Source of the DNA: a virus
Taxonomy: Duplodnaviria > Heunggongvirae > Uroviricota > Caudoviricetes
IMG/VR virus record: IMGVR_UViG_2718218453_000003
Location: 1 to 39,971 of that record
Reading direction: 5' to 3' (one strand)
Length of the DNA: 39,971 nt
The first letter of the stretch is position 1, and each line of letters begins with the position of its first letter. A program made the position numbers and the translations under genes. Shown here piece after piece: positions 982 through 16,131 of the stretch. The notes beneath the pieces are model-generated. The model searched no databases. It saw only the letters and a program-made list of their open reading frames with translations, and was not told the DNA's origin.

Positions 982-1026
982 AAATTCAATCACTTATACA
1001 TCATTAAGTCAGTGACAAAAATCACA

Positions 1027-1063
1027 CTTGGAATTACTTGGAATATTTTCTTGGAATATTTTC
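1027..1063. repeat. Three direct CTTGGAAT repeats (1027, 1037, 1050), the last two part of a tandem 13-nt TTGGAATATTTTC; candidate Int arm-type binding sites
   Basis: Direct repeats read in sequence at the int 3' end between tRNA and integrase. Confidence 0.35.
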
Positions 1064-2059
1064 AGGTAACGGGACATCAAGTGTCGGTGAAACTTTAACC
1101 TTCCTGTCATAGATTAGCACTTGCCCTTCGGTTTTGTGACCAGAGAAAAGTTGCTTATCCCGACTGCTTCCTTCATAGTCTGAAATTCCTTTCGCCTTCA
1201 GATCATGAAAGGTGAAGTCGGTTAAAATACCTGAAATTTTGCCTGCGCGATTTCTTGCTTCTACCCACATTTCGTTAAAGCCTTTGTACATATATCGGTT
1301 GCCGTATTGATTGCTGATTACATAGGCGGATGTTGGTAACTGTTTTGCTTTTTCGATCGCCGCCTGTAATCGTGGACTCCATGCTTTTATCTGTTTTTTT
1401 CCTGTTTTCCCTTGCTGGATAAAGATCCCGTCGTTTCCAATCTGCTCCCATTTCAGCGATAACACATCGGAAACCCTCGCTGCACACAGATAGGCAATTT
1501 CCATTGCGATAAAAACAGGAAGAGGTGCAACGCTTAATACTGCCTGGTATTCTTTGTCGGTTACATATCGTTCGCGGTTTTTGGCCTTGAATTTACTTAC
1601 ACCTGCACATGGGTTAGCCTTCACGTACCCTCGCTCATACCCCCAACTGTAAACGCGGGACATACTGCTTTTTTCATGGTTGGCTTGCGTTTTACTCTGT
1701 TCCCCTCTCTTGTCCATGTATCGACGGATGTGTTCTGGTTTTATGGAATCTGCCGGCACCTTACCGAATACGGCAAGCAACTTTTTTTGATGTTGCAGAT
1801 AATCTTTTTGTGTTCTTGGACTGAGGTCACTGTAATAGGCGCTGGCGAGGAATTTTTCCCACAAGCGACCGAATGTCATTGCACGATCGCGATTATTTAC
1901 AGTTTCCTCATACTTTTTCCATAAAGCAGCTAAACCATCCTTGATGGCGGTTAGTGTTACAGATTCTCTGGATGTTGGTTTCCATACATAACTATATTTA
2001 TTTGGGTATACATTTGGAGGTAATTTTTCGTGTTCAGGATTTTTCCTTCGTCTTCCCAT
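1034..2059 (-). CDS. int: Phage integrase, tyrosine recombinase (341 aa)
   Basis: Adjacent to tRNA; C-terminal region with HDLK...GHKTEGQVLIYDR tyrosine-recombinase-like motifs. Confidence 0.9.
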   Translation of the reverse strand: MGRRRKNPEHEKLPPNVYPNKYSYVWKPTSRESVTLTAIKDGLAALWKKYEETVNNRDRAMTFGRLWEKFLASAYYSDLSPRTQKDYLQHQKKLLAVFGKVPADSIKPEHIRRYMDKRGEQSKTQANHEKSSMSRVYSWGYERGYVKANPCAGVSKFKAKNRERYVTDKEYQAVLSVAPLPVFIAMEIAYLCAARVSDVLSLKWEQIGNDGIFIQQGKTGKKQIKAWSPRLQAAIEKAKQLPTSAYVISNQYGNRYMYKGFNEMWVEARNRAGKISGILTDFTFHDLKAKGISDYEGSSRDKQLFSGHKTEGQVLIYDRKVKVSPTLDVPLPENIPRKYSK

Positions 2060-2262
2060 CAGATCGCACCAAAATTCGGCTCTACCTCGCGTGGCGGTAA
2101 AGTTTTATTGCAGGTAAATAGATCCCGGCTGACAATCGGTTTGCCACTACGATTGGTATAGAACGGAAGCCCGTTTTCCATTAACCATTTTCGCTGGTGG
2201 CTTGCATATTTGCAGCCCGTTAATATTAGCAATTCATCTTCGGTTAAAAATAAGCTGCTCAT
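2059..2262 (-). CDS. Excisionase-like small protein (67 aa)
   Basis: Small ORF immediately upstream of int, stop overlaps int start (ATGA); position typical of xis. Confidence 0.55.
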   Translation of the reverse strand: MSSLFLTEDELLILTGCKYASHQRKWLMENGLPFYTNRSGKPIVSRDLFTCNKTLPPREVEPNFGAI

Positions 2263-2320
2263 AGCTATATCTCATAACCGCCGCTAACTATATACGGTTA
2301 GCGGCAATTAGGGTTGAACA

Positions 2321-4762
2321 TTAAAAATCAGCCTGACTCGGGATCAGTTTTTGCCAGATAGCTGAAACGTATTTTGCCTGGTAACGAGCGTCATCAAGTG
2401 CATTATGGCGCTCACCTTCGAATGGAATAGCCGTTCTGGCATCGAAGTCTATGGCTTTCCCCAGCTCAACGATTGTGCGTACATCGCGATCGTTGTAGTA
2501 ACGCCACGGGCAGGGGATCCCCTGCCGTTCGTATGAACGGCGCAAAATCGTGTTGTCGAAGTTGGCTCCATTTCCCCAGACCTGAACAAAAAATTCACCG
2601 GAGTTTTCGTCGATAAATTCCCGCAATTGTAACAGTGCATCATCTAACGGGATTTCATCGGTCATAATGGCAGATTGCGCTTCGCGTGATTGCTTAAGCC
2701 ACCATTTAATGGTGTCCCGATCAATGACTCCGCCAGCAGTTTCCAGATCGATAGTCTTACTAAATTCCGGTCCCATATCTCCGGTTTGCGGATCGAAAAA
2801 TATTGCACCTATTGAGATGATCGGGGCATCAGGATTTTTTCCCATGGTTTCAAGGTCGATCATTAGATGGTCACACGTCCTGCTGGTGGATGTGATTTCG
2901 TGATGACCATTCACCGTAATTAAGGGATCTGCCGTCTCGCCAGTTTTACTATCGCTGGCGTGGTCCTGAGCGCTGCCAGCATTCTCCTTGTGTGGATGTT
3001 CAGCGCCTTCCATTTCCTCCGGATCATTTTCCTGAACTTCAACCTGATTCTCTTCATCGAATGTTTTCTGGTATGTTGCGTCGCCCATCACCGCGCCACA
3101 ATCAGGGCAGTTGCCGCCACCGCTCTGACCGCAGGCGGTGCAGACTTTTTTCGGTTCCTGTTGCGCTACTGGTTCGGATTGTTTCGTTTCTGGCTCGTTT
3201 TGTAACGCATTTGGGCTGTTTTGTTCCGCTTTTTGGTCGTTCCGTTCCGATTCATGCTGGTTCTGGTTCACAGAATCGCGAGTCTGGATCCCCTTGACCC
3301 ATTTCGGATCATTAGGGTCGCTAATCCCCTCAACAAATTCACCACGCGATACAGCAAGTAACTTATCGGCGTCAGGCTGGCTGATATTGGCTGCCTGCAT
3401 AATTTTGTTTACTTCGTCAGCGGTGACTTTTACTTGGTTAGCGGAACTCACCTGCGACTGAGCATCCAGCGACTGCGCGTTCTGGCAATGTTCAGTTGTA
3501 TCCGGTTCCATTGTTTCAGTTGTTGCCTGTTCACCTGCCATTGCGTCAGATGGTTGTGGTTTTTCTTCTTCTGTTTCACGCTCAGTAACCACCTCGCGGT
3601 TAATTTCTTCCAGGATATCTTTTTCCGGCGTATGCCGGGCAGCTGTGAGAGTTTCCTTGCTGGGGTTCTCGTGATCAGTTTCCGTCAAATAGGCGTTGAT
3701 ATACCCCTGAAGGCGTCCCGGGTAGTGATAAAATTCAGGGTGTGCGCTTCGGATAAGTGCAAAAATAGCGGCGCGGGAATAGTCCAGAATACCCGGGGTT
3801 GCACGAAGTGCTGCGGACCATTCTTTGAACGGACTTTCTTTTTTCAGGACTACTTCTTTTGCGCGACGATAAACGCTGCCCGGAATTTCATAAATATTAA
3901 AATCCATCGGAAGTGTGGCTGCTGCAATCTCCACATCCAGTGTGTCGAGGGTGTGTACTAAATTCGGATTGCGATCGGTTTTGTTCCCACCGCCAGCATT
4001 AGCACCGGAAGCCGTGCGGGTGATGCGTGAAACACGATTTCCTTTCATCCACTCTTTTGTCAGCAGACCCCGATCAGTGTAGTGAGCGTCCAGGTATGCT
4101 TCGAAAAAAGCAGTTATTAGTCCCAGGTCTGAATTACCAGGATTAGGGAAAACTTTGTCAGTGTCACGAACCAGTTTGTGGAGGTCGCGAATCTCCAGCG
4201 AGTCGAGCAGACTGGTTTTATGCGAAATAGCCAGGGCAGTAACAGCCGGTAGTTCTTCAGCCCGTGCAATGTGTAATGCCTGGAGTTCGTCGCGTGAAAC
4301 GTGCGTTACTGGTTTTTCGCTGCCGTGTTGAGCAAGCCAACGAATGGGCAGTTCCTGACCGGAGACAGGTAGAAGCATGCTCTCCTCAATCTCAGTCATG
4401 TCTTCGCCGTTGATGTTGGTATTATCAGTGCTGGCTGATTTGTCCTGAACAGAGGGGGAAGGGCCGATAAATGTCATTGTGATGCCATCTTTCCCGCCTT
4501 TTTCATAGCGGTTGCAGAATTCAGTATCAAACACGCCTTCTGGCGGAAGGTCGTCAACAACGGGCAAATTGACGCGGACGGGTTTTTTAAAGTCGTCTTC
4601 ATCATAATCGTTGTCATCCATTGCGGTAATGCAGCGGGAGATTGCAACAGATAATTTTTTTGCTGTAGTCCAGTAAAAACCACCTTTAATTCCTAGGCGT
4701 TTTCTTACTTTGTCATTTTTTGCTTCGCAATATAGTGCAAATTCTTCTTTATCAGTGCTCAT
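2321..4762 (-). CDS. RecE-family exodeoxyribonuclease VIII-like protein (813 aa) with C-terminal DEDDh (DnaQ-like) 3'-5' exonuclease domain
   Basis: N-terminal region resembles recalled RecE N-terminus ([41 protein letters not shown]); C-terminal Exo I DLE (MIDLETMG), Exo II GNGANFD, Exo III HNALDDA; internal [16 protein letters not shown] zinc-ribbon-like motif. Confidence 0.8.
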
Positions 4763-4855
4763 TATTGATAAACCTCATCACAGATTTAAGGGTGAACAAA
4801 TCTCTGCCATTGCTGACATATAAGAATGAAACTGGATATTTATTACGGTGCTGTT

Positions 4856-5047
4856 TTAAAATCCTGCCGGGATTTCGTTATTATCCTGGTGAATAACTTT
4901 ATCGACCGGATAACAGTTGCCTGGAATTTTCTGTTCGGTTGCTGCTGCCATACATTCCTGCATTGTTCTGTGAACACTGACTGCAATATCAACTGGCTCT
5001 CCGGAAACAAGAAAAACCGTCAGAATAAGTGCAAATACTGGATTCAT
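4856..5047 (-). CDS. ydfD: YdfD-like small protein with N-terminal hydrophobic segment (63 aa)
   Basis: Start chosen at MNPVFALILTVFLVSG with AAGGA RBS; start overlaps dicB stop (ATGA); last gene of dicB-type operon; length matches recalled YdfD. Confidence 0.6.
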   Translation of the reverse strand: MNPVFALILTVFLVSGEPVDIAVSVHRTMQECMAAATEQKIPGNCYPVDKVIHQDNNEIPAGF

Positions 5048-5232
5048 TGTGCACATCCTTTTGGCATCAGACGTAAACGGGCCAGCATTGAAACAATGCA
5101 TACTTTATTTAATAACTCCCGTTCGTGTTTTCTTTTGTTAATGGCCTCTTCAGTAAATACAGGATTACTGATAGTGACACCAATTTCAAAACAACCTTCA
5201 GACGTATTAACGTTTGGTAATAACGTTTTCAT
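5044..5232 (-). CDS. dicB: Cell division inhibitor DicB (62 aa)
   Basis: MKTLLPNVNTSEGCFEIGVTISNPVFTEEAINKRKHERELLNKVCIVSMLARLRLMPKGCAQ matches recalled DicB; directly downstream of DicF. Confidence 0.8.
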   Translation of the reverse strand: MKTLLPNVNTSEGCFEIGVTISNPVFTEEAINKRKHERELLNKVCIVSMLARLRLMPKGCAQ

Positions 5233-5406
5233 TATCGCGCCCTCAACAATGAGTTTTGTGATGCGGTGCCTGGTGCCTCCAGGTGACGTTAACCAGTTAA
5301 CAATTAACGCCGGATACAGAGAATCCACCCATAACACTGTTTTTGGTTTTAACTGTTCCGCGTGCGCTTAGCCGCATTCACCGCATCACAAAATTCACTT
5401 TAAAAA

Positions 5407-5459
5407 GGGCGGCAGAGCAGTCACGGAGTAAAACTGATACCGCCAAACGTCACCAGAAA
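5407..5459 (-). ncRNA. dicF: DicF small RNA (ftsZ-targeting sRNA of the dicB operon)
   Basis: Minus-strand sequence TTTCTGGTGACGTTTGGCGGTATCAGTTTTACTCCGTGACTGCTCTGCCGCCC followed by TTTTT matches recalled 53-nt DicF; lies between ydfC-like and dicB. Confidence 0.8.
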
Positions 5460-5800
5460 ATTGATAACAGAGGGCGTTGCAGCGGGGTTGTCACTTAAGC
5501 GTATGGTCAACCTGACAACCCGGTGTCCTCAACGGGGGAAGGAATAACCCCGCCATACTTACCGCCGCGCCATTTCGCGGATTGCCACAACCGGAAGCGC
5601 ACGGTCGACGAAAATTTAACGACAGGCTATCTATGAACCAGCTACCTCGCCGTGCGCTTTCGCGTTATGGTCTGACTTTTCAGGGAAATATCCTTTCAGT
5701 AAACTGTCAGTGCCGGATGCTCACCCGTGTCCGGCGCACGCACTCCACCTCACCCGTGGAGAACTCCTTAATTACTAACCTTAGCTTTGTTGATTAGCTA

Positions 5801-6019
5801 CTAACGCGGGTATGTAATCATTCTGGCAATGCTTAATGCCGCTGCTTTTTCCAGATTGGTGATATCCTGCTCCAGAGCGGACAGATTTTCAGCCTGCTTA
5901 GCCCTGGCTTCATTAGCCCATTTCAGATCCTGCGCTGCATTAATTTTCTGGCGCATCCACTCATAAAGTTCATCATCGGTATAGTCTGGCGCGATGATGA
6001 CGGGTTCTCGTTTCTGCAC
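5801..6019 (-). CDS. ydfC: YdfC-like protein (72 aa), GTG start
   Basis: GTG start preceded by GAGGAA RBS; position and length match ydfC of the dicB operon. Confidence 0.6.
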   Translation of the reverse strand: MQKREPVIIAPDYTDDELYEWMRQKINAAQDLKWANEARAKQAENLSALEQDITNLEKAAALSIARMITYPR

Positions 6020-6048
6020 GCTGATTCCTCGCGGTGCTGTTTCGCTTA

Positions 6049-6177
6049 TCAGCCGTTAGATTTTGCCGAACTGGAAAGCGCCTGTTTAAATTCGCTGAAG
6101 CTGAGAGCTTCTTCGCCTTCGGCAAAGCCTTCGAAGTATTCTTCGTAAGCCTTTTCCATGATTGTGTCGAAATCCAT
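6049..6177 (-). CDS. ydfB: YdfB-like acidic small protein (42 aa), not in ORF track
   Basis: Hand translation MDFDTIMEKAYEEYFEGFAEGEEALSFSEFKQALSSSAKSNG; start 3 nt after ydfA-like stop; length matches recalled YdfB. Confidence 0.5.
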   Translation of the reverse strand: MDFDTIMEKAYEEYFEGFAEGEEALSFSEFKQALSSSAKSNG

Positions 6178-6178
6178 A

Positions 6179-6334
6179 TCACCCACCTGAATTTCTTTCC
6201 AGCCAGCGACGCGCTCCAGATTCGGTTTTAAACGTTTTGCTTTTGGTATACGTCATTGCGGTGAAGGTGCCGTCCTGGTTGGGAAACACGCCGTACACCA
6301 GAGATTCGTTGTTGCCAAGATCGATAGTATCCAT
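6179..6334 (-). CDS. ydfA: YdfA-like protein (51 aa from internal Met; alternative upstream start at 6415 gives 78 aa)
   Basis: MDTIDLGNNESLVYGVFPNQDGTFTAMTYTKSKTFKTESGARRWLERNSGG; TGAGGT RBS before Met at 6334; first gene downstream of PL. Confidence 0.6.
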   Translation of the reverse strand: MDTIDLGNNESLVYGVFPNQDGTFTAMTYTKSKTFKTESGARRWLERNSGG

Positions 6335-6513
6335 GCTGACCTCATTTCCCCTTAACGCCGGGGTAGCGGAACAAAAACCTGCTGCATAGTTATTAAAGTT
6401 GAACCCTGCCGTCATGTTCTTACGCCTCGGGCTGGCTACTTAACCCCTGACCACTGCCTGGTAACTCGAAGTATTGCCCTGCATTCTGTAGGATGGGGTG
6501 AGGGAATGAATGA

Positions 6514-6560
6514 AGTTTAGAAAAACGAACTTTTCAGGTCAATGTTTTTTTATCAAAACA
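6514..6560 (-). promoter_or_regulatory. Leftward early promoter PL (-35 TTGACC 6542..6537, 17-nt spacer, -10 TAAACT 6519..6514) with adjacent palindromic operator TGTTTT-N6-AAAACA (6543..6560)
   Basis: Near-consensus sigma70 hexamers on minus strand between cI stop and ydfA-like gene; 18-bp palindrome shares arms with the OR operator. Confidence 0.5.
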
Positions 6561-6626
6561 TTTTAAGCAGGCAGCTGTTAAGCCATCACCACGATGGCAT
6601 ACAGTTAATCAAATAGATGAGGTTGG

Positions 6627-7265
6627 TTAAATATCTTGTTGAATTTTAAAGCATACGCCCAATATGCAAGATAGATCATCCAGCATAATTGAAGGGTAGC
6701 GAGGATTCGTGGGGACTAAAAGAATATCCGGCCCTTCTATCTCCAGTTTACGAATGACAGGTGTTGTGGTCCCTTTGGGTAAGGCAAGGACAATATTTCC
6801 TGGTTGTACGGTTCGATCGGGATCAATAAAAACTGTTGAACCATTTGGGATGGAAACTCCCCCACCAGATGTTGACATACTGTCACTCTCTAGAACAACT
6901 GCAAAGGTATTGACCGGGATTTCTCCGACAAGCTGCACACAAGAGGTTATTGAGGAATTTTTCATATAATCACTCCAGCTTGCTGCCTGCTGAAGTGATA
7001 GTAGCGGAACCGTTTTTATCGGCGGTAAAGATAGATCAAGCGAATCACCTGTATTTAACTCTCCTCCATTAAGAAGCCAATTTTCGTTTACTTTCAATAT
7101 TTTTGCCAGTGAACTTATGTAACGCGAGGACGGCGCTCCTCCACCGTTCATCCATTGACTTACGGAGCCTTTTGATGCGCCAGTGCCATTGACAAGGTCT
7201 TTGCCTTTCAGGTTTAGCGCATGCATACGTTGGGTTATGCGTTCAGATATAGTTTGCTTGCTCAT
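6627..7265 (-). CDS. CI-like prophage repressor (212 aa): N-terminal HTH, C-terminal S24 LexA-like autopeptidase domain
   Basis: N-terminal HTH-like region, C-terminal ESDSM serine motif and downstream Lys; divergent from cro-like gene; no SD, start codon inside operator. Confidence 0.9.
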   Translation of the reverse strand: MSKQTISERITQRMHALNLKGKDLVNGTGASKGSVSQWMNGGGAPSSRYISSLAKILKVNENWLLNGGELNTGDSLDLSLPPIKTVPLLSLQQAASWSDYMKNSSITSCVQLVGEIPVNTFAVVLESDSMSTSGGGVSIPNGSTVFIDPDRTVQPGNIVLALPKGTTTPVIRKLEIEGPDILLVPTNPRYPSIMLDDLSCILGVCFKIQQDI

Positions 7266-7328
7266 GTTTTGATTTTAAAACACAGATGGTTTTGTTTCTT
7301 GACTTTTTTTGGTTTTGATTATTAAACT
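7265..7328. promoter_or_regulatory. OR region: palindromic operator TGTTTTGATTTTAAAACA (7265..7282), rightward promoter PR (-35 TTGACT 7299..7304, -10 TAAACT 7323..7328) overlapped by a second operator-like site (7311..7328)
   Basis: Read directly; divergent cI and cro-like genes flank it. Confidence 0.55.
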
Positions 7329-7356
7329 TTTGACGTTCAGTTTTATGGAGCGACTC

Positions 7357-7587
7357 ATGAAAAAATCAGAAGTATTAGGCTATTTTGGCGGAGTTGTTAA
7401 AACAGCCGCAGCTCTAGGAACGTCAAAAACCACAGTCAGCATGTGGGGGGAAGAGGTTCCGTGGAAATGGGCGTTGCTAATTCAGGCAGTCACTGCCGGG
7501 GCGCTCAAATATGAGTTACACATACCGACGGTTGTCATTCCCGGTTCTGATCATAATCCGCCTTCTAACCAAGGGGGGGATTCATGA
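7357..7587 (+). CDS. Cro/DicC-like (YdaS-family) small HTH regulator (76 aa)
   Basis: Start at MKKSEVLGYFGG with GGAG RBS; divergent from repressor; YFG...W...VP pattern similar to recalled DicC. Confidence 0.8.
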   Translation: MKKSEVLGYFGGVVKTAAALGTSKTTVSMWGEEVPWKWALLIQAVTAGALKYELHIPTVVIPGSDHNPPSNQGGDS

Positions 7588-8009
7588 AAATCAAGCATGA
7601 ACACATCCGCATGGCGATGAATGCCTGGGCGCATCCGGACGGCGAAAAAGTACCGGCTGCGAAAATTACCAAAGCGTATTTCGAGCTGGGAATGACGTTC
7701 CCGGAACTGTATGACGACAGCCATCCGGAAGCCCTGGCTCGCAATACCCAGAAAATTTTCCGCTGGGTAGAGAAAGACACCCCTGATGCAGTTGAAAAAA
7801 TTCAGGCGTTGTTACCAGCGATCGAAAAGGCAATGCCACCTTTGCTGGTGGCCAGAATGCGCAGCCACAGTTCAGCTTATTTTCGGGAGCTGGTGGAGAC
7901 GCGGGAGCGACTGGTGAGAGACGCTGATGATTTTGTCGCAGTGGCAATCGCCGGTTTCAATCAGATGAACCGTGGTGGCCCGGCAGGAAATGCTGTGGCA
8001 GTACATTGA
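7584..8009 (+). CDS. YdaT-like protein (141 aa), CII-position regulator
   Basis: MKIKHEHIRMAMNAWAHPDGEKVPAAKITKAYFELGMTFPELYDD resembles recalled Rac YdaT; ATGA overlap with cro-like stop. Confidence 0.7.
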   Translation: MKIKHEHIRMAMNAWAHPDGEKVPAAKITKAYFELGMTFPELYDDSHPEALARNTQKIFRWVEKDTPDAVEKIQALLPAIEKAMPPLLVARMRSHSSAYFRELVETRERLVRDADDFVAVAIAGFNQMNRGGPAGNAVAVH

Positions 8010-8080
8010 CTGACAATAGCCATATCGAATCGCTTCCGGCAACTCGTGAGTAAAAAGATTCGGTATCAGAAGAGGTGAGT

Positions 8081-9151
8081 ATGGCTAACGCCTGGCTCAG
8101 ATTATGGCATGACATGCCAAATGACCCTAAGTGGCGAACAATTGCCAGGGTGTCAGGGCAGCCAATTGCAACAGTGATGGCAGTGTATATCCACCTCCTG
8201 GTGAGCGCGTCACGAAATGTCACGCGAGGTCACATTGATGTCACGACAGAAGATTTAGCAAGTGCGCTCGACGTGACAGAAGAGGTAATTGATTCAATTT
8301 TGCAGACGATGCAGGGGCGGGTACTTGATGGTGATTTAATCACTGGATGGGAAAAACGCCAGGTGCTTAAAGAGGACAACGGCAATATTTCGCAAACCGC
8401 AAAATCTCCGGCAGAGCGCAAGAGGGCGCAGCGAGAGAGGGAAAGAAAGCGGGAACAAAATGGCGATTGTCACGGCGCGTCACGAAATGTCACGCACATG
8501 TCACGACGAGTCACGACAGATAAAGATACAGATAAAGATACAGATCAAGAAGATCAAAACACTATGGTCCATGGCGTAAAAAACGCCACGAACCAGGCAG
8601 GGGATGTTCAGACCGTCAATCCTGGTCAGCCAGCAGGCACGACACCGGAAGCCGATTCAGCGTATGCGCTGAAAGCCGATTCGGGCGCTGTGCAGCAGGT
8701 GATGACCCCAAGGCCGGAACAATCACACCAACTGCAGCAGCCTGAAGCCGATTTCGCCATTCAGCGGGAAGCCGATCGGGTAGTCCCGGAAAACACCGGG
8801 CTGTCTGTGGGACGAGTGGATTATCCGGATGTGTTCGAACAGGTCTGGCGGGAGTACCCGTTGCGTGCCGGAGCAAACCCGAAGAAATCCGCTTTCAGTG
8901 CATGGAAGGCCAGATTACGCGAGGGGGTGCCACCAGAGGCCATGCTGGATGGCGTGAGGCGTTACGCAAGATACTTGGCGGCTACCGGGAAAACGGGAAC
9001 GGAATTTGTTCAGCGAGCGACGACGTTTTTTGGACCGGACCGGAATTTTGAGAACCCCTGGTTGCTCCCGGTAAGCGGCACGAACAACCAGCGTTGTGTG
9101 AATCATATTTCTGAACCGGATAACGAAATTCCGCCGGGCTTCAGGGGGTAA
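8081..9151 (+). CDS. Replication initiation protein, lambda O-like role, YdaU-like N-terminus (356 aa from ATG 8081; GTG 8075 alternative)
   Basis: Position after cro/CII-like genes; gene body contains two iteron arrays and an AT-rich tract as in lambda O; GAGG RBS. Confidence 0.65.
   Translation: MANAWLRLWHDMPNDPKWRTIARVSGQPIATVMAVYIHLLVSASRNVTRGHIDVTTEDLASALDVTEEVIDSILQTMQGRVLDGDLITGWEKRQVLKEDNGNISQTAKSPAERKRAQRERERKREQNGDCHGASRNVTHMSRRVTTDKDTDKDTDQEDQNTMVHGVKNATNQAGDVQTVNPGQPAGTTPEADSAYALKADSGAVQQVMTPRPEQSHQLQQPEADFAIQREADRVVPENTGLSVGRVDYPDVFEQVWREYPLRAGANPKKSAFSAWKARLREGVPPEAMLDGVRRYARYLAATGKTGTEFVQRATTFFGPDRNFENPWLLPVSGTNNQRCVNHISEPDNEIPPGFRG
8210..8246. repeat. Iteron-like array 1: GTCACG/GTCACA at 8210, 8220, 8230, 8241 (10-11 bp phasing) inside the O-like gene
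   Basis: Direct repeats read in sequence. Confidence 0.6.
8469..8560. repeat. Iteron-like array 2: five GTCACG repeats at 8469, 8479, 8489, 8500, 8510 followed by AT-rich tandem GATAAAGATACA tract; candidate ori
   Basis: Direct repeats at helical periodicity followed by AT-rich tract. Confidence 0.6.
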
Positions 9152-9191
9152 GTGTTAATTTCTGGTCATGAGGTAATTTTCAGGAGGGCTT

Positions 9192-9428
9192 GTGGCAAAA
9201 GTTTTTACACAAGAAGAGCGGGAAAAAATTAAAGGACAGGTTGTTGAACTCGTACGCCAGAGTGGGCGCGAGACGTTACGACAACTGGAAACTAAAACTG
9301 GGGCAACAAGATATCTGATGAGCGAGATTAATTATCAGGAAGGGTATGAAACGGCGGGGCAAGCAAAACCAGTGGCATGGCGATATCGCTACGTGAAAAA
9401 AGGCGTTACGGACTTTCAGGGGAAGTAG
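9192..9428 (+). CDS. Hypothetical protein (78 aa, GTG start); reading frame continues past an in-frame TAG to 9632
   Basis: AGGAGG upstream of GTG; protein-like sequence continues in frame after the TAG at 9426..9428. Confidence 0.4.
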   Translation: MAKVFTQEEREKIKGQVVELVRQSGRETLRQLETKTGATRYLMSEINYQEGYETAGQAKPVAWRYRYVKKGVTDFQGK

Positions 9429-9802
9429 TGGTCTGGTGACTGGAAATATGTACCGAAAAAAGAGGATTGTAACGATAGGCCGAACTATGAAATTCAGGCC
9501 TTATTCACTGCCCCGCCAGTCCCGGTTACATCAGAAGAACTGGTTAAAGCTGTGCACTTTTATGAACAACTAAAACGCGAAAATCCACCAGCATCCGGAA
9601 ACCTGATTACAGATTCCCAGATAAGGCAATGAGCTACCTGGCGCAGAACGGGCTGATAAGTATGGGGAATGTTTTACGATGAATATTTAGACTAAAGAGT
9701 TTGTAACGCTATGTAAGTGATTTTTTCTGGTTTAGATATTTATATGTCCGGCCAAATTGAGGTGTGTTTAAATGTAATTGCACATTGATTGTAGGAGGAA
9801 TA

Positions 9803-9982
9803 ATGAAAAACGCATTGCAGTTTTTGTTTGTTGCGTTTTGGTTGTTCGTATCATGTATGCCCATCATCTTCACAGCAAGGTATATGGAAAAAGTTGATGT
9901 TTTGATATTAATATTTGGATATATAAATGCCCTTTTTTTAGGGGTGTTCATGGCGGTCATGTGCATTGAATACTGGCGGTAA
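9803..9982 (+). CDS. Small hydrophobic membrane protein (59 aa, two predicted TM segments) in AT-rich segment
   Basis: AGGAGG RBS 5 nt upstream of ATG; MKNALQFLFVAFWLFVSCMPIIFTARYMEKVDVLILIFGYINALFLGVFMAVMCIEYWR. Confidence 0.55.
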   Translation: MKNALQFLFVAFWLFVSCMPIIFTARYMEKVDVLILIFGYINALFLGVFMAVMCIEYWR

Positions 9983-10037
9983 ATACAGCGAACGCCATTG
10001 GTTTAGTTGGATATTTACTGTGCCGGACAAAAACGGT

Positions 10038-10065
10038 TTGCGGGGAAATCTTAGTTAAGTAGAAT
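10038..10065 (+). promoter_or_regulatory. Candidate hok mRNA promoter (-35 TTGCGG, 16-nt spacer, -10 TAGAAT)
   Basis: Hexamers read in sequence; predicted 5' end coincides with element complementary to the mRNA 3' end. Confidence 0.4.
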
Positions 10066-10124
10066 GACTGCGGGTGCTTGAGGCTATCTGTCTCAGGCAT
10101 GAACACCAAAGGCAGATAGAGAAA

Positions 10125-10204
10125 AGCCCCAGTTAACATTACGCGTCCTGCAAGACGCTTAACATTAATCTGAGGCTCAATCTATGAACGGCAAATCTAG
10201 GTTA
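10125..10204 (-). ncRNA. Putative Sok-like antisense RNA region (candidate promoter -35 TTGCCT 10227..10222, -10 TAACCT 10204..10199) overlapping the mok SD and start
   Basis: Promoter-like hexamers with 17-nt spacer antisense to the mok initiation region; boundaries not determined. Confidence 0.3.
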
Positions 10205-10396
10205 GCCTCTTACGTGCCGAAAGGCAAGGAGAAGCAGGCTATGAAGCAGCAAAAGGCGATGTTAATCGCCCTGATCGTCATCTGTTTAACCGTCATAGTG
10301 ACGGCACTGGTAACGAGGAAAGACCTCTGCGAGGTACGAATCCGAACCGGCCAGACGGAGGTCGCTGTCTTCACAGCTTACGAACCTGAGGAGTAA
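10184..10396 (+). CDS. mok: Mok-like reading frame (70 aa), in-frame N-terminal extension of hok
   Basis: ATG with GAGG RBS; same-frame arrangement as recalled mokC/hokC. Confidence 0.55.
   Translation: MNGKSRLASYVPKGKEKQAMKQQKAMLIALIVICLTVIVTALVTRKDLCEVRIRTGQTEVAVFTAYEPEE
10241..10396 (+). CDS. hok: Hok/Gef-family type I toxin (51 aa), closest to recalled HokD/RelF
   Basis: MKQQKAMLIALIVICLTVIVTALVTRKDLCEVRIRTGQTEVAVFTAYEPEE; TM helix plus conserved RKDLCEV...TGQTEVAVF core. Confidence 0.85.
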   Translation: MKQQKAMLIALIVICLTVIVTALVTRKDLCEVRIRTGQTEVAVFTAYEPEE

Positions 10397-10466
10397 GAGA
10401 CCCGGCGAGGGAGAAATCCCTCGCCACCTCTGATGTGGCAGGCATCCTCAACGCACCCGCACTTAA

Positions 10467-10491
10467 CCCGCTTCGGCGGGTTTTGTTTTTT
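10467..10491 (+). terminator. Rho-independent terminator of the hok transcript (CCCGC-TTCG-GCGGG plus T-run)
   Basis: Hairpin plus TTTTGTTTTTT read in sequence. Confidence 0.7.
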
Positions 10492-10563
10492 CCTAGCATT
10501 CTGGTTTACAATTCGCACGCCAGCCTGAACAACTGGCACCTGCTGCGCCAGCAGAGACAACCG

Positions 10564-10842
10564 ATGGCGCACGATACCAAATTACACAATTCTGATGATT
10601 CTGCCGTCTTTGCCAGCAGGCACGGGCGGCGTTCCCGCACTTTCAAATCTGACTGGTTCCAGCATCCCCCATGCACTGAAGAACAGGCCGAGTGGCTAAT
10701 TCAGTGCTACCGCAGACACGGATACGAGATTAAGAAAGCCCTCAGCCTCGATTATCGTCACTGGATAATCTCCGTCAGGCTTCCTTACTCCGAACGCCCA
10801 CCGCGTCCGTCCCGCACATTCCAGCAACGCATCTGGAGGTAA
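10564..10842 (+). CDS. Hypothetical protein (92 aa); occupies the Qin rem slot between hok and ydfU-like gene
   Basis: First in-frame ATG downstream of the hok terminator; stop abuts DUF968 gene start. Confidence 0.5.
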   Translation: MAHDTKLHNSDDSAVFASRHGRRSRTFKSDWFQHPPCTEEQAEWLIQCYRRHGYEIKKALSLDYRHWIISVRLPYSERPPRPSRTFQQRIWR

Positions 10843-10843
10843 C

Positions 10844-11893
10844 GTGCGGGTATTACTTCGACCTGTTCTGGTACCGGAACTCGGGCTGGTGGTCGTTAAG
10901 CCGGGCCGTGAATCCATGCCGGTATTCCACAATACCCGGGTACTGGTGGAGCCGGAACCGAAAAGCATGCGTAATCTGCCGTCCGGGGTCGTTACTGCCG
11001 TTCGCCAGCCGCTGGTGGAAGACAAAACATTGCTGCCGTTTTTCAGTAACGCACGGGTAATTCGTGCTGCTGGTGGTGCTGGTGCATTGTCTGACTGGCT
11101 GTTGCGCCATATTAAATCCTGCCAGTGGCCACACGGCGATTATCATCACAGCGAAACCGTCATTCACCGTTATGGTACCGGCGCAATGGTGTTGTGCTGG
11201 CACTGCGACAACCAGCTGCGTGACCAGACATCCGAATCACTCGAGCAACTTGCTCATCAAAACCTGTCAGCATGGATGATTGACGTCATCGGTCACGCAA
11301 TAAGCGGTACGCAGGAGCGTGAATTATCTTTGGCTGAATTATCCTGGTGGGCGGTCCGCAATCAGGTGGCGGACGCGCTACCGGAAGCGGTATTACGTCG
11401 TTCGCTGGGGTTGCGTGCGGAAAAAATCCGCTCAATGTACCGTGAAAGCGACATCGTACCGGGAGAGCAGACCGCCACCAGCATACTGAAACAGCGCACA
11501 AAAAATCTTGCACTGTTGCCTCACGCCCACCAGCAACAGAACCCACCACAGGAAAAGACGGTGGTCAGCATTGCCGTTGATCCTGAGTCTCCGGAATCTT
11601 TCATGAAACGACCTAAACGTCGCCGTTGGGTTAACGAGAAATACACACGCTGGGTGAAGACACAGCCGTGTGCGTGTTGTGGTAAGCCAGCCGACGATCC
11701 CCATCACCTGATTGGTCATGGTCAGGGCGGAATGGGGACAAAATCTCACGATATTTTCATGCTACCGCTGTGTCGGGAGCATCACAACGAGCTTCATGCG
11801 GATCCGCTGGCGTTCGAAGAAAAGCATGGTTCTCAGGTTGATTTAATTTTTCGTTTTCTTGATCACGCCTTTGCAACTGGCGTGCTTGGGTAA
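10844..11893 (+). CDS. ydfU: DUF968-family protein (YdfU-like, 349 aa) with C-terminal Cys/His-rich HNH-like motif
   Basis: GGAGG RBS before GTG; C-terminal CACCGKPADDPHHLIGHG...LCREHHNELH; length and position match recalled Qin ydfU. Confidence 0.7.
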   Translation: MRVLLRPVLVPELGLVVVKPGRESMPVFHNTRVLVEPEPKSMRNLPSGVVTAVRQPLVEDKTLLPFFSNARVIRAAGGAGALSDWLLRHIKSCQWPHGDYHHSETVIHRYGTGAMVLCWHCDNQLRDQTSESLEQLAHQNLSAWMIDVIGHAISGTQERELSLAELSWWAVRNQVADALPEAVLRRSLGLRAEKIRSMYRESDIVPGEQTATSILKQRTKNLALLPHAHQQQNPPQEKTVVSIAVDPESPESFMKRPKRRRWVNEKYTRWVKTQPCACCGKPADDPHHLIGHGQGGMGTKSHDIFMLPLCREHHNELHADPLAFEEKHGSQVDLIFRFLDHAFATGVLG

Positions 11894-11905
11894 AAGAGGT
11901 GACTG

Positions 11906-12262
11906 ATGCTCATAGATTTGGTTTTACCTTACCCGCCGACGGTGAACACTTACTGGCGACGCCGTGGCAGCACATATTTTATCTCGGAGGAGGGAAAGCG
12001 TTATCGCCGGGCTGTGGCGCTTATTGTTCGCCAGCAGCGGCTGAAATTAAGCCTGTCCGGAAGGCTGGCGATAAAGGTGATTGCAGAGCCACCGGATAAG
12101 CGTCGTCGCGACCTGGACAATATCCTGAAAGCACCGCTGGATGCGCTGACGCATGCGGGAGTGTTAATGGACGATGAGCAGTTTGATGAAATCAATATCG
12201 TTCGTGGTCAGCCAGTATCTGGTGGACGTCTGGGGGTGAAGATTTACCCCATAATGCATTAA
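11906..12262 (+). CDS. rusA: RusA-family Holliday junction resolvase (118 aa)
   Basis: PPTVNTYWRRRG...DKRRRDLDNILKAPLDALTHAGVLMDDEQ matches RusA pattern; AAGAGGTGA RBS. Confidence 0.85.
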   Translation: MLIDLVLPYPPTVNTYWRRRGSTYFISEEGKRYRRAVALIVRQQRLKLSLSGRLAIKVIAEPPDKRRRDLDNILKAPLDALTHAGVLMDDEQFDEINIVRGQPVSGGRLGVKIYPIMH

Positions 12263-12276
12263 GAGCAGGTCAAAAA

Positions 12277-13098
12277 ATGAAACTGGAAGATTTACCGAAA
12301 TACTACTCCCCAAAATCCCCTGGCCTGACCGATGCATCGGCCTCAACGTCAAAAGATGCGCTGAGTATCACTGATGTGATGGCCGCGCAGGGCATGACAC
12401 AGAATCGGGCTGAGATGGGTTTTTCTGCGTTCCTGGGGAAAATGGGCATCAGTATGAATGACAGGGCGCGGGCAACAGAATTACTGGCAGATTATGCACT
12501 CAGTCGGTGCGATCGTGTGGCTGCGTTGAGAAAACTTCCGGCAGAAATAAAACCGGTAGTGATGCGCATTATGGCTTCGTACGCTTTTGAGGATTATGCC
12601 CGCAGCGCAGCGAGTAAAAAGCAGTGCCCTTGTTGCTATGGGGAAAAATTTATTGAAAGCGTAGTTTTTACAAACAAGGTCCAGTATCCGGATGGTAAGC
12701 CGCCGGTATGGGCAAAGTGTACGAAAGGTGTGTATCCGTCTTACTGGGAAGAATGGAAAAAAGTCAGGGAGGTGGTAAAAGTTGCCTGTCCGGAGTGTGG
12801 CGGAAAGGGTGAGGTTTCCACCGCCTGTAAGGATTGCCGTGGGCGTGGTGTCGCCATTCATCGTGAAGAGTCGGTAAAACGTGGTATGCCTGTTATCAGA
12901 GACTGCCAGCGTTGTGGTGGTCGTGGCTATGAAAGACTACCATCAACGGAGGCATTTAATGCTATATGCGAGGTGACAAACCAGATAACACGCGCGTCAT
13001 GGGAAAAAACAGTTAAGAAATTCTATGATGCGCTGGTGACCCGGTTTGATATTGAAGAAGCATGGGCTGAGCGGCAGTTAAAAAAGGTAACTAGGTAA
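12277..13098 (+). CDS. Late-gene antitermination protein Q (273 aa) with Cys-rich zinc-finger repeats
   Basis: Position upstream of late promoter and tRNAs; CPCC, CPECGGKGE, CKDCRGRG, CQRCGGRG motifs. Confidence 0.75.
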   Translation: MKLEDLPKYYSPKSPGLTDASASTSKDALSITDVMAAQGMTQNRAEMGFSAFLGKMGISMNDRARATELLADYALSRCDRVAALRKLPAEIKPVVMRIMASYAFEDYARSAASKKQCPCCYGEKFIESVVFTNKVQYPDGKPPVWAKCTKGVYPSYWEEWKKVREVVKVACPECGGKGEVSTACKDCRGRGVAIHREESVKRGMPVIRDCQRCGGRGYERLPSTEAFNAICEVTNQITRASWEKTVKKFYDALVTRFDIEEAWAERQLKKVTR

Positions 13099-13103
13099 CA
13101 AGG

Positions 13104-13131
13104 TTGATTTTTCCGGAATCTGTGGTAAATT
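13104..13131 (+). promoter_or_regulatory. Candidate late promoter PR' (-35 TTGATT, 16-nt spacer, -10 TAAATT)
   Basis: Hexamers immediately downstream of Q stop. Confidence 0.5.
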
Positions 13132-13179
13132 CGTCATAACGATGGGCTTTTTATGCCTGACGTTAGAAGAGTTTCTACA

Positions 13180-13205
13180 ACCCGCCGCCGAGCGGGTTTT
13201 TTATT
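13180..13205 (+). terminator. Candidate tR' terminator (ACCCGC-CGCCGA-GCGGGT plus TTTTTTATT)
   Basis: Hairpin plus T-run about 50 nt downstream of the PR' -10. Confidence 0.6.
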
Positions 13206-13241
13206 GCGGAATTAATTACGGACCGTTATTATTCTGCTCCC

Positions 13242-13317
13242 GGCCCTTTAGCTCAGTGGTGAGAGCGAGCGACTCATAATCGCCAGGTCGCTGGTTCAAA
13301 TCCAGCAAGGGCCACCA
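13242..13317 (+). tRNA. tRNA with CAT anticodon, ileX/ileZ-like (tRNA-Ile2, formally Met by anticodon), 76 nt with CCA
   Basis: Cloverleaf checked by hand: acceptor GGCCCTT/AAGGGCC, D-stem GCTC/GAGC, T-arm GCTGG-TTCAAAT-CCAGC, anticodon loop CTCATAA. Confidence 0.85.
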
Positions 13318-13417
13318 TCACAAACCGCCATTAGCTTATCAGGAAGAGCAGACGACACGATAACAGGGTTGTTGGTGCGGGGGCGGGTCCCCGATGGCGG
13401 TCCATTATCGGTATTCA

Positions 13418-13491
13418 GCGTTGTTAGCTCAGCCGGACAGAGCAATTGCCTTCTAAGCAATCGGTCACTGGTTCGAATCCAGTACAGCGCG
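13418..13491 (+). tRNA. tRNA-Arg (anticodon TCT), 74 nt, no encoded CCA
   Basis: Cloverleaf checked by hand: acceptor GCGTTGT/ACAGCGC, anticodon stem ATTGC/GCAAT, loop CTTCTAA, T-arm ACTGG-TTCGAAT-CCAGT. Confidence 0.85.
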
Positions 13492-13631
13492 CTATATTCA
13501 TTCTTCCAGATTCCTTCCGGCAGAGCCTTATACTGAAATATACCTGGCTCAGGATATTGTTGAAAATATTTTATGTTTGTCAAAAATAAAAGTTCTGTTA
13601 AGTATTGATTGAGTGTTTGTTATACGGTCTA

Positions 13632-13958
13632 ATGGTTTTTTCAGCATTAAATATTTATCATTCATATGGTGTGGGTAGAGTGAATATTGATGAGGCGTCG
13701 GGGTGTTTCATCCTTAGGCAGCGTATTGATATAGTCAATGCAGGACGAGCAAAGGCCTTCAGCCGTTTGACAGTTTTGTTCTGTACTCCTGATCGTCTTT
13801 CGGGAAGAGACGTTATTATTCTGAATAGTGATGCTATACAGAGGGTTTGCGATGAGTTCATGGTTGCTAATTCAGAATTATTTGCTCTTGTTCAGGAGTA
13901 CAACAGAATAGCCAGTACCTGTGGTATGGATGAACTTCGGATTACTCATCTGGGGTAG
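13632..13958 (+). CDS. Hypothetical protein in AT-rich island (108 aa from first ATG; start uncertain, ORF track begins at TTG 13605)
   Basis: Long ORF with helical-looking C-terminus; no recognised family; an antisense ORF 13658..13861 also exists. Confidence 0.35.
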   Translation: MVFSALNIYHSYGVGRVNIDEASGCFILRQRIDIVNAGRAKAFSRLTVLFCTPDRLSGRDVIILNSDAIQRVCDEFMVANSELFALVQEYNRIASTCGMDELRITHLG

Positions 13959-14037
13959 ATACATATCTGGATTATCACTTGTTACGGTAAAAAGTGATTG
14001 CTTACTGTTTTTGTGAGTGGCATTGCAGCAGCCGGAT

Positions 14038-14124
14038 AATGTCAGTGCTGGCTGACGGTGTGCTGGTGGCGGGTGTGGTGGTTGTTGCTTTCCCGTTGCT
14101 GAAAAAGAAAACGCCAGACTGTTA
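14038..14124 (+). CDS. Candidate 28-aa hydrophobic peptide MSVLADGVLVAGVVVVAFPLLKKKTPDC
   Basis: Hand translation; hydrophobic core with polybasic tail; weak RBS; speculative. Confidence 0.2.
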
Positions 14125-14348
14125 GCCGGGTATCAGTTAGCGGGAGAAATTTTTAAATACTTCACAATTCAGGCGGTTGACTGTTGTCTGGTTTGCGGGG
14201 AGTTTGTTAAAAGAAACTGGCATGGTGAATCCCCCTGTGCGGAGGGGCAATCAGCGAGTAGGTATATGGGATAATCGCGAATTCAGGTGCTGGTACTGAA
14301 TTCACCGGGAGGCACCCGGCACCATGCAATGGCACATAGCGCCACTCT

Positions 14349-14380
14349 CCAGCCCCTCTCCGGAGGGGCTGTTTATATTG
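14349..14380 (+). terminator. Rho-independent terminator (CAGCCCCTC-TCCG-GAGGGGCTG plus TTTATATTGATTTT)
   Basis: 9-bp GC stem, 4-nt loop, T-rich tail. Confidence 0.6.
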
Positions 14381-14405
14381 ATTTTGTCAGATGTGAGTAA
14401 ACTCC

Positions 14406-14741
14406 TTATGGACTTTGTTGTTTTAGTCCATAAGGACATATTTGCAGAATGCAACGGTTATTAAAGCATTCATTCAATACGTTATCTGTATTTGTAGGGC
14501 ATTCCTGGCTGTTTTTGATTAAATTCCAGAATGTTTTATTGAATGGTACTACGTTGTAAATGGTTACAGGTAGCACTTTGTTATTGAGCATGATACCTGT
14601 GTGAGTCAGTGTAAATATACTTTCAGGAGGTAAGAAAGCATCCGATTGATACCAGATTATTAATTTTACTTTACTCCATATGACTGAAAAAGATATTCCG
14701 CATGATGGCTGGATAACTGTATCAATCACAATCCACTTCAT
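14406..14741 (-). CDS. Hypothetical protein (111 aa) in AT-rich island, convergent with the 13632 ORF
   Basis: AGGAA RBS 5 nt upstream of ATG; promoter-like TTTACA / TATACT upstream on minus strand; no recognised family. Confidence 0.55.
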
Positions 14742-15001
14742 TTAGTTTCCTTGTTTATGCCTTGCTGGTGATGTTCTGAAAAGTATAAATGATATTTTTG
14801 AATGTAAACCATAGAGCAGAATTATTTTTCTGATGTTGTTTATTGTTTATTTAAATGCAGGGTGGTTTATATCTCGTCTTGTAGTTTATCCATGCATATC
14901 TGCTTGATAATCAAGTTTTTATTTAAGGTATGGTTTTGTGTTTTTTCTGTATTACATGTCAGGTATTTTAAAGAATTATTTTTCAGATGGTGGAAAGAAC
15001 C

Positions 15002-15190
15002 ATGGCATTTAAACACTATGATGTTGTCAGGGCGGCGGCGCCGTCAGATCTTGCGGAAAAGCTGACACATAAACTGAAAGAGGGCTGGCAGCCGTTTGGT
15101 AGTCCGGTGGCCATAACCCCTTATACCCTGATGCAGGCGATTGCAGCAGAAGGTGATGTGGTGGTCAGTGGTGCAACTGAGCCGGAGTGA
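15002..15190 (+). CDS. DUF1737-like small protein (62 aa) typical of the slot upstream of lambdoid holins
   Basis: MAFKHYDVVRAAAPSDLAEKLTHKLKEGWQPFG; position immediately upstream of holin. Confidence 0.6.
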   Translation: MAFKHYDVVRAAAPSDLAEKLTHKLKEGWQPFGSPVAITPYTLMQAIAAEGDVVVSGATEPE

Positions 15191-15497
15191 TACTACGTCA
15201 TCGTACTGGCCCGGCATTCCAGGCCATAAAAGACGGTCTGGCAGTGAGACTAAATGCACTGACGCTGACGGATATTACCAAAAATGCAACGTATGGCGTT
15301 GAGATAGAAAGTCTGGTGCTGGAGATAAATACACCGGCATCATCATAAAAAGTGAGCCAGTCAAATGGAAGGTATCGTTAAACTCACCGGTAGTGTCAGT
15401 GGATCGTCTGAGACGCTTGCATGAGTTATCAGAGCCATCAGTAGTTAACTGGTGGCTTTTTTATTGTTGTCAGCTTCCGGATAACGGGAGACGGGGT

Positions 15498-15713
15498 ATG
15501 GACCAGATGGAAAAAATCACAACAGGTGTGTCATACACCACGTCAGCGGTGGGAACGGGCTACTGGTTCCTGCAGTTGCTGGACAGGGTTTCCCCGTCTC
15601 AGTGGGCGGCAATAGGCGTGCTGGGGAGTCTGCTGTTTGGGCTGCTGACATATCTGACTAACCTGTATTTCAAAATCAGAGAGGACCGTCGTAAGGCGGC
15701 ACGGGGAGAGTAA
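15498..15713 (+). CDS. Phage-21-type pinholin (S21-like class II holin, 71 aa) with dual-start motif
   Basis: ...[55 protein letters not shown] closely matches recalled S21; two TM segments. Confidence 0.85.
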
Positions 15714-15717
15714 TTCA

Positions 15718-16068
15718 ATGACTCAAAACTATGAACTGATTGTGAAAGGGATCCGCAATTTTGAGAATAAAGTTACGGTAACTTTAGCGTTACGGGACAA
15801 AAAACGCTTTGACGGTGAAATTTTTGACCTGGACATCTCGCTGGACCGTGTTGAAGGTGCCGCGCTGGAGTTTTATGAGGCAGCAGCCAGAATGAGCATC
15901 AGACAGGTCTTCCTGGATGTTGCTGCCGGGTTATGTGAAGGGGATGAGCAGTCGCCGGAAAAGCGCCCCGTAATTTTAGAGGCGCAGAATGTATGGATAA
16001 CCTACAAAGGAAAGCTACCGGGAAGAATTACTGGTTCTCTGAAGACTCCTCCGGAATCACAACCTTAA
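15718..16068 (+). CDS. Hypothetical soluble acidic protein (116 aa) inserted between holin and endolysin
   Basis: ATG 5 nt after holin stop with GGGGAGAG RBS; no TM segment; no recognised family. Confidence 0.6.
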   Translation: MTQNYELIVKGIRNFENKVTVTLALRDKKRFDGEIFDLDISLDRVEGAALEFYEAAARMSIRQVFLDVAAGLCEGDEQSPEKRPVILEAQNVWITYKGKLPGRITGSLKTPPESQP

Positions 16069-16131
16069 GTCACTGACCGGAACAGATAAACCTGTCCGTG
16101 GGCAGAAACCGATAAATCCTGATAAATATCC

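Follow-up and report, generated by a model that had tools for sequence, protein, structure and literature searches.

RecE of the Escherichia coli K-12 prophage Rac combines an N-terminal module, an acidic linker and a C-terminal PD-(D/E)XK (PDDEXK) nuclease head acting 5'-3', and its gene is followed by recT, ralR and rcbA. Full-length RecE improves linear-linear recombineering and, to our knowledge, no function has been assigned in decades to its first ~600 residues. The N-terminal domain has been described as being of unknown function (PMC11611040), and RecE relatives without a nuclease domain have been termed 'RecE-2' proteins (PMC12315714). The latter paper, published in 2025, also described 3'-5' nucleases of the DnaQ-like kind in the Rec modules of lambdoid phages and defined a 'Tritos' class of four phages that carry a nuclease without an annealase (single-strand annealing protein), a single-stranded DNA-binding protein (SSB) or an anti-RecBCD function, all with many top-strand Chi sites. 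This nuclease-only class of lambdoid phages (PMC12315714) is thought to be reliant on host RecBCD-Chi recombination. Here, we describe an exonuclease gene located at positions 2321-4762 (minus strand) of IMG/VR virus record IMGVR_UViG_2718218453_000003, the whole analysed stretch of which (39,971 nucleotides, hereafter the window) is an E. coli lambdoid, Rac/Qin-like prophage integrated at tRNA-Ser beside mtfA. According to the list of open reading frames (ORFs), the gene is intact, starts with ATG and encodes 813 amino acids, in which a RecE-type N-terminal region is joined to a DEDDh 3'-5' exonuclease domain. We consider it probable, with moderate confidence, that the product is a stand-alone 3'-5' exonuclease built on the RecE N-terminal module and made from the early operon of a phage reliant on RecBCD-Chi recombination.

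The RecE-like start of the 813-residue frame, proposed in a first-pass annotation of the window, was borne out by the Pfam match to PF06630 (Exonuc_VIII) at residues 57-189 (E 6.5e-36) and by BLASTP comparison with K-12 RecE, in which residues 58-616 aligned with RecE residues 50-592 at 58% identity and no similarity was found past residue 616. The identity to Rac RecE exceeded 90% across residues 121-240. The NCBIfam RecE equivalog model NF007259 matched residues 1-616 only (model positions 1-603 of 877), with a score of 940.5 bits that lies under its curated cutoff of 1269, and Pfam analysis detected no C-terminal PD-(D/E)XK domain (PF12684/DUF3799) of the kind present at the C-terminus of K-12 RecE. 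The structural model placed three folded domains in the N-terminal region, all encoded on the minus strand: a first alpha/beta domain (residues 1-100, positions 4463-4762), which holds the start of the PF06630 match, a helical domain (residues 128-247, 4022-4381), which is the block best conserved relative to Rac RecE (37 of 40 residues identical per 40-residue segment), and a second helical domain (residues 260-380, 3623-3985), weakly common to Rac RecE and the Tritos/YdfE-type protein. No structural relative was found for the confidently modelled part of this region. The following residues 381-630 (2873-3622, minus strand) form a predicted disordered acidic linker, with a net charge of about -31 and a predicted local distance difference test score (pLDDT) mostly below 50 in the AlphaFold2 model. 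The linker is the fastest-evolving segment of the protein, with a nonsynonymous divergence (dN) of 0.03-0.08; the values for the folded domains (0.002-0.025, from small counts) indicate an intact and constrained gene. The pair of CxxC motifs mentioned in the first-pass annotation is present within the linker at residues 541-555 (3098-3142, minus strand), as CTAC at 541 and CPDC at 552; the spacing is seven residues instead of the nine stated there. The same motif is carried by K-12 RecE (CNAC...CPDC), is absent from most non-Escherichia homologues and is surrounded by pLDDT values of 30-45. The suggested zinc-ribbon reading was thus downgraded, because the region is modelled as disordered and the motif is not conserved beyond Escherichia-type sequences. 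Simple clamp-binding and SSB-tail motifs were also looked for in the protein and were not found.

The C-terminal part (residues 631-813, positions 2324-2872, minus strand) belongs to the Rv2179c/DexA family of DEDDh 3'-5' exonucleases. Residues 632-803 matched PF16473 (Rv2179c-like) with an E value of 8e-68 and 228 bits against a cutoff of 27, covering profile positions 2-177 of 177. The characteristic motifs were located at residues 636 (DLE), 730 (GNGANFD) and 786 (HNALDDA), and an alignment (MAFFT) with T4 DexA and stand-alone phage homologues assigned the complete catalytic pentad D636, E638, D736, H786 and D791 to DexA columns D7, E9, D119, H186 and D191. Two T4 DexA structures (8KEL and 8KEN) were the sole sequence matches in the PDB. 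The AlphaFold2 model, built from a 16-sequence alignment, reached a pLDDT of 80-90 at residues 631-810, and the modelled domain is predicted to adopt the RNase H-like DnaQ fold; the top Foldseek match was DexA, followed by RNase T, oligoribonuclease (Orn) and REXO2, all of them DEDDh 3'-5' exonucleases and all with a probability of 1.00. The earlier proposal that a DnaQ-like exonuclease replaces the nuclease of RecE therefore stood, as PF16473 and the full pentad are present, PF12684 is absent and the alignment found no standard RecE nuclease at the C-terminus. Judging from sequence, the domain should take nucleotides off 3' ends.

The likeness to T4 DexA comprises the DEDDh fold, the five catalytic residues and the best PDB match in both sequence and structure; nevertheless, the identity is only ~25% and DexA-specific loops are absent from the window protein. 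The proposed 5-hydroxymethylcytosine (5hmC)-reading residue W152 of DexA aligns with Y756, D169 aligns with D772, and the tetramer residue D90, which is Ala in the E. coli homologue EcD, aligns with D708 in the MAFFT alignment at ~25% identity, with A709 adjacent. The start of EcD, known from a cloning primer as MIDTET, may be compared with MIDLET at residue 634 of the window protein. DexA and the exclusion nuclease EcD (HREX) are stand-alone proteins of ~190-230 amino acids, whereas the domain described here is tethered to ~630 additional residues. The same holds for stand-alone phage Rv2179c-like/DnaQ-like exonucleases (LLS gp34, PhiR46_1, YuA gp41), which lack the N-terminal region; the C-terminal domain of the window protein is 53-60% identical to the enterobacterial members of this group, and their genes occupy early-operon positions, often beside xis-int. 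As determined by tblastn, the C-terminal domain family occurs in 1291 phage records, T4-like dexA genes included. One homologue, annotated '3'-5' exoribonuclease' in the Klebsiella P2-like phage ST16-OXA48phi5.4 (locus L008, 4004-4570), had three of the five catalytic positions changed (E to I, D to K and H to C) and is probably catalytically dead.

Comparisons at the DNA and protein levels showed that the gene is a mosaic of modules known from two other prophage types. In relation to Rac recE, window positions 3971-4423 were 92% identical and positions 2919-3571 were 75% identical, and the homology ended at position 2919, i.e., at about residue 615. In relation to K-12 Qin, positions 4771-6372 (ydfA to ydfD) were 96.6% identical, and the similarity ended 8 bp ahead of the ydfE start. 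The first-pass annotation had regarded the gene as the intact form of Qin ydfE, which proved wrong as stated: K-12 YdfE (b1577) showed no similarity to the window protein (best BLASTP E value 4.1), and only the slot directly downstream of ydfD is shared. Residues 1-256 of YdfE were instead 99% identical to residues 1-256 of the 823-residue exonuclease of phage Tritos, from which PF06630 is absent. Since YdfE matches the Tritos N-terminus and not the window protein, K-12 ydfE is, on sequence grounds, the remnant of a sibling gene of the Tritos type, truncated by IS2 and residing in the same operon slot. Thus, ydfE is a truncated gene, as had been proposed, but its intact counterpart is a sibling with a different N-terminal module.

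The Tritos and window exonucleases share only about residues 270-813 (70% identity overall), with 33-40 identical residues per block of 40 from residue 441 to the end. The Tritos/mEp460 protein therefore has the linker and the DEDDh domain in common with the window protein, and its gene lies in the same ydfABC-dicF-dicB-ydfD-exo-xis-int operon of an annealase-free, Chi-rich genome, whereas its N-terminal ~260 residues are unrelated, being YdfE-type rather than RecE-type. Conversely, Rac RecE shares PF06630, the acidic linker with its CxxC...CxxC motif and the leftward early operon position upstream of xis-int, but it possesses the PF12684 5'-3' nuclease with recT, ralR and rcbA downstream, all of which the window gene lacks. 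Accordingly, the modules are ordered as RecE-N, shared linker and PDDEXK head in Rac, where RecT is present; as YdfE-N, shared linker and DEDDh head in Qin/Tritos, without an annealase; and as RecE-N, shared linker and DEDDh head in the window prophage, again without an annealase. The junction of the modules lies inside the linker, and the gene appears to have arisen through module exchange within this shared segment.

A homologue search with residues 1-616 returned near-identical E. coli entries only, and the diversity was taken from an exhaustive HMMER search of 1.84 billion representative proteins, in which the same region yielded only 263 clusters. Among the 79 representatives of at least 450 amino acids, 20 had a PDDEXK tail, 15 a DEDDh tail and 44 no detectable nuclease tail, so heads of either type occur on RecE-type N-termini. 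Ten of the long tail-less homologues were checked and had no C-terminal domain in Pfam. Such homologues are found among entries P0121-P0270 (e.g., P0129, P0176, P0190, P0197 and P0200); some may be cut at contig ends, and others may be nuclease-less 'RecE-2' proteins.

Within a dicBF-type early operon that runs leftward, with all elements on the minus strand, the exonuclease gene is the last of the large genes. The gene order is S24 repressor, DUF1391/ydfB/ydfC, DicF, dicB, ydfD-like gene, exonuclease, xis-like gene and int. The region is headed by a CI/LexA-type repressor with a helix-turn-helix (HTH) and an S24 peptidase domain (6627-7265), followed by the DicF small RNA (5407-5458; Rfam RF00039, 76.7 bits), and dicB (5044-5232) and a ydfD-like gene (DUF1482, 4856-5047) directly precede the exonuclease in the same operon. 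The xis-like gene (DUF4224, 2059-2262) lies 58 bp downstream of the exonuclease stop, and the tyrosine integrase gene (1034-2059) is located at the prophage end, which abuts tRNA-Ser (892-981) and mtfA. Both flanking genes agreed with those named in the first-pass annotation (xis and ydfD-like, the latter belonging to the YdfD family). The 58-bp gap between the stop and xis is too short to accommodate recT, ralR and rcbA as arranged in Rac. A promoter and terminator scan of positions 1900-7500 gave the same counts as shuffled sequences and was uninformative as to an independent promoter.

The absence of an adjacent RecT/Bet-like annealase, also noted in the first-pass annotation, was confirmed by annotation, phmmer and ORF review, and no overlooked annealase emerged. 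The PGAP annotation of the near-identical locus of strain 190 (NZ_CP020520.1), which differs from window bases 1-28526 at only three positions, contains no annealase. Phmmer queries with RecT, lambda Bet and P22 Erf found no match among all window ORFs of at least 60 amino acids, and the ORFs of at least 120 amino acids are all either shadow ORFs or located within annotated genes that do not encode an annealase. Gam and Abc2 had no phmmer match in the window, nor were Gam and Abc annotated by PGAP; an SSB was likewise missing from the window, as judged by annotation alone. The same annealase-free arrangement was observed in the genomes of phages Tritos, mEp460_ev081 and vB_EcoS-640R1, the last of which carries a 98.5% identical gene beside a different integration module, while recT lies directly downstream of the PDDEXK-type recE in Rac and vB_EcoS-666R9.

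This synteny was extended by a scan of one genome per species, which gave 80 loci, 22 with fused genes and ~55 with stand-alone ones. The fused loci came from ~10 enterobacterial genera (Escherichia, Klebsiella, Citrobacter, Kluyvera, Kosakonia, Enterobacter, Leclercia, Phytobacter, Buttiauxella and others), and phmmer found RecT, Bet or Erf within +/-8 kb of the fused gene in none of the 22. In a census of 110 upstream ORFs, the top 25 of the 64 Pfam families included replication and regulator families (YdaT, DnaT, DUF1376, HTH and IstB) but none of annealases. The stand-alone homologues (~190 amino acids) were linked to Erf or Abc2 at 5 of the ~55 loci, with proteins 56-58% identical to the C-terminal domain: four of the genes lie just downstream of Erf (L045, L046, L062 and L065), one of them in a tight Erf-SSB-exonuclease module (L045:6877-8549), and a fifth (L048) lies just upstream of Abc2.

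The window contains 15 Chi octamers (GCTGGTGG) between positions 2193 and 30272, all within the prophage, 11 on the plus and four on the minus strand. The number expected from shuffled sequences was 1.57 +/- 1.27, and 15 was reached in none of the 100 shuffles. Ten of the sites (seven plus, three minus) lie at 7844-16557, from the cro side to the lysis genes, and the plus strand, with 11 Chi, is the late-gene strand. Because an annealase, Gam and Abc2 are absent and the sequence is rich in Chi, the window prophage matches the description of the nuclease-only Tritos class published for Chi-rich lambdoid phages.

On the basis of these observations, we propose the following mode of action. Three folded RecE-family N-terminal domains would be tethered via the ~250-residue acidic disordered linker to the DEDDh head, and the exonuclease would be made upon derepression of the leftward early operon (ydfABC-dicF-dicB-ydfD-exo-xis-int). 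The head would then trim 3' ends, with a presumed 3'-5' polarity and a presumed DNA substrate, and the phage would use host RecBCD-Chi recombination instead of an annealase of its own, presumably in cooperation with the nuclease. In comparison to Rac, the PD-(D/E)XK head and recT-ralR-rcbA would have been swapped for a DEDDh head abutting xis; in comparison to Qin/Tritos, the N-terminal module would have been swapped. As the PDDEXK head and recT-ralR-rcbA are replaced, the locus would not represent a RecET-type two-component recombinase.

Several points weigh against this proposal. The Chi excess is modest (P about 0.03) relative to the host density of one site per 4.6 kb, and the 11:4 strand bias fits the leading-strand bias expected for chromosomal DNA from GC skew; cryptic prophages gain Chi like the chromosome, with the same leading-strand bias. 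The prophage itself may be cryptic or defective, though its exonuclease gene is intact, because it contains pseudogenes: the PGAP annotation of strain 190 flags the integrase and cro genes as frameshifted and a DUF977 gene as having an internal stop (window 1009-2059, 7357-7600 and 9192-9632, respectively), and the DUF977 stop was confirmed in the window. The substrate could be RNA, since the Pfam family takes its name from an RNA exonuclease. Finally, a rare or novel annealase may have escaped searches consisting of three single-sequence queries and the census of the top 25 of 64 families.

The last point relates to an alternative in which the protein would be one half of a recombination system, the nuclease, while the annealase would either be unrecognised or come in trans from another prophage or from host RecA/RecFOR; 3'-5' resection would then leave 5' tails feeding annealing or strand invasion. 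The gene indeed occupies the early-left operon slot of exo-bet in lambda and recET in Rac, its N-terminal region is common with RecE, and DnaQ-like genes have been treated as legitimate members of Rec modules (PMC12315714). The stand-alone homologues that adjoin Erf or Abc2, including that of the Erf-SSB-DEDDh module, point in the same direction, but they account for just the five stand-alone loci listed above, and no RecT, Bet or Erf accompanied any fused gene. Moreover, the exonuclease stop is close to xis, the known annealase partners use 3' tails produced by 5'-3' nucleases, and DnaQ-like 3'-5' nucleases usually inhibit homologous recombination (PMC12315714). We therefore regard this alternative as unlikely. 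A similarly improbable one is that the protein serves in anti-phage defence or superinfection exclusion as a nuclease of the HREX kind, comparable to EcD, degrading incoming modified (5hmC-type) phage DNA from 3' ends. The expression of dicB, which shares the operon of the exonuclease, reportedly protects cells from some phages, and among solved structures the nearest relative is T4 DexA. For EcD, a DexA homologue that occurs in E. coli as a stand-alone protein, degradation of the T4 genome in vitro and protection of cells against T4 have been reported (PMC12153337), and its primer-derived start resembles that of the window domain. Nevertheless, EcD is a different, stand-alone protein, the identity to DexA is low, the 5hmC-reading W152 is replaced by Y756, and D90, missing in EcD, aligns with D708 (at the low identity given above, A709 being adjacent). 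PADLOC gave no match for the exonuclease protein, and the gene belongs to a repressor-controlled lytic operon rather than to a constitutive cassette expressed in the lysogen.

The structural neighbourhood of RNase T, Orn and REXO2 raises the question of whether the protein might be a true Rv2179c-like 3'-5' exoribonuclease, trimming phage or host RNAs such as the dicF-operon transcripts. The name of the Pfam family, the '3'-5' exoribonuclease' label among the PGAP/NCBI names and the presence of DicF upstream in the same operon would agree with this. However, the top match in both sequence and structure is the DNA exonuclease DexA, the N-terminal region is common with a DNA nuclease and some stand-alone homologues reside in Erf-SSB modules, which makes an RNA-processing role very unlikely. 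Even less credible is a reading of the gene as a recombinant remnant that has no function and lies in a prophage undergoing decay. The prophage copy does contain several pseudogenes, and the K-12 sibling ydfE was cut by IS2; yet the 813-codon frame is intact with complete catalytic residues, and many genomes as well as sequenced phages carry copies that are identical or 98-100% identical. In addition, fused orthologues are found in ~10 genera, and nonsynonymous divergence is low in the folded domains.

The gene is common: at least 80% of it was present in 1233 of 5426 complete E. coli genomes, and the exact 813-residue protein (P0034) was found on 121 contigs in public collections, with both Pfam domains recorded. 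PGAP names the protein of the near-identical locus 'exonuclease' (WP_069354169.1); other names in use are '3'-5' exonuclease', '3'-5' exoribonuclease', 'RecE family exodeoxyribonuclease' and 'exodeoxyribonuclease VIII'. The last two are misleading for this protein and represent a common mis-annotation. The gene, its annotation, the nuclease-only class (described in 2025) and the DnaQ-like Rec nucleases are already known; a literature search on ydfE as an exonuclease or on Rv2179c-like genes in prophages found nothing relevant. Dozens of 'partial' entries (P0001-P0120) stop at residues 617-730, just beyond the module junction, which suggests that draft assemblies often break at this point, because one genome can contain the N- and C-terminal modules repeatedly, in separate prophages. 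Copies of the gene or domain labelled as Veillonella parvula, Geobacteraceae, Actinomycetes, Streptomyces and Chryseobacterium (L010, L034, L046, L072 and L073) were of the enterobacterial type, that of L010 being 94% identical along the whole protein; the labels probably reflect binning or assembly contamination and not true hosts. Elsewhere in the window, the tape-measure gene is intact and free of IS66, which splits it in strain 190. The prophage also carries several cargo genes (morons): the toxin-antitoxin pair hokD/sok (10072-10396), the anti-adaptor gene iraM (14406-14741), the serum survival gene iss for a bor-like lipoprotein (17155-17448), and tRNA-Ile and tRNA-Arg downstream of the antiterminator (13242-13491).

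The presented analysis adds a three-module mosaic map, a corrected relationship to ydfE, a survey of annealase-free fused loci and an N-terminal region for which the model found no structural relative. It clarifies what K-12 ydfE is the remnant of, the gene itself being common and annotated and its class having been catalogued in 2025. The window gene constitutes a natural swap, in which one N-terminal module is combined with a nuclease of opposite, presumed polarity and occurs without RecT; this argues that the role of the N-terminal module is independent of RecT and of 5'-3' resection. Proteins with a PD-(D/E)XK head, a DEDDh head or no head provide a ready comparison set for experiments. 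We tentatively suggest, as a possibility that is rather doubtful at present, that the N-terminal 380 residues of RecE, together with the acidic tether, form an autonomous module delivering interchangeable heads to one cellular target. If so, the target might be, e.g., DNA ends or the RecBCD pathway, and the heads would be a PD-(D/E)XK 5'-3' nuclease working with RecT, a DEDDh 3'-5' nuclease working alone, or none. The DEDDh version would then represent either an accessory, not previously characterised, of phage growth that depends on Chi/RecBCD or a tethered exclusion nuclease resembling HREX.

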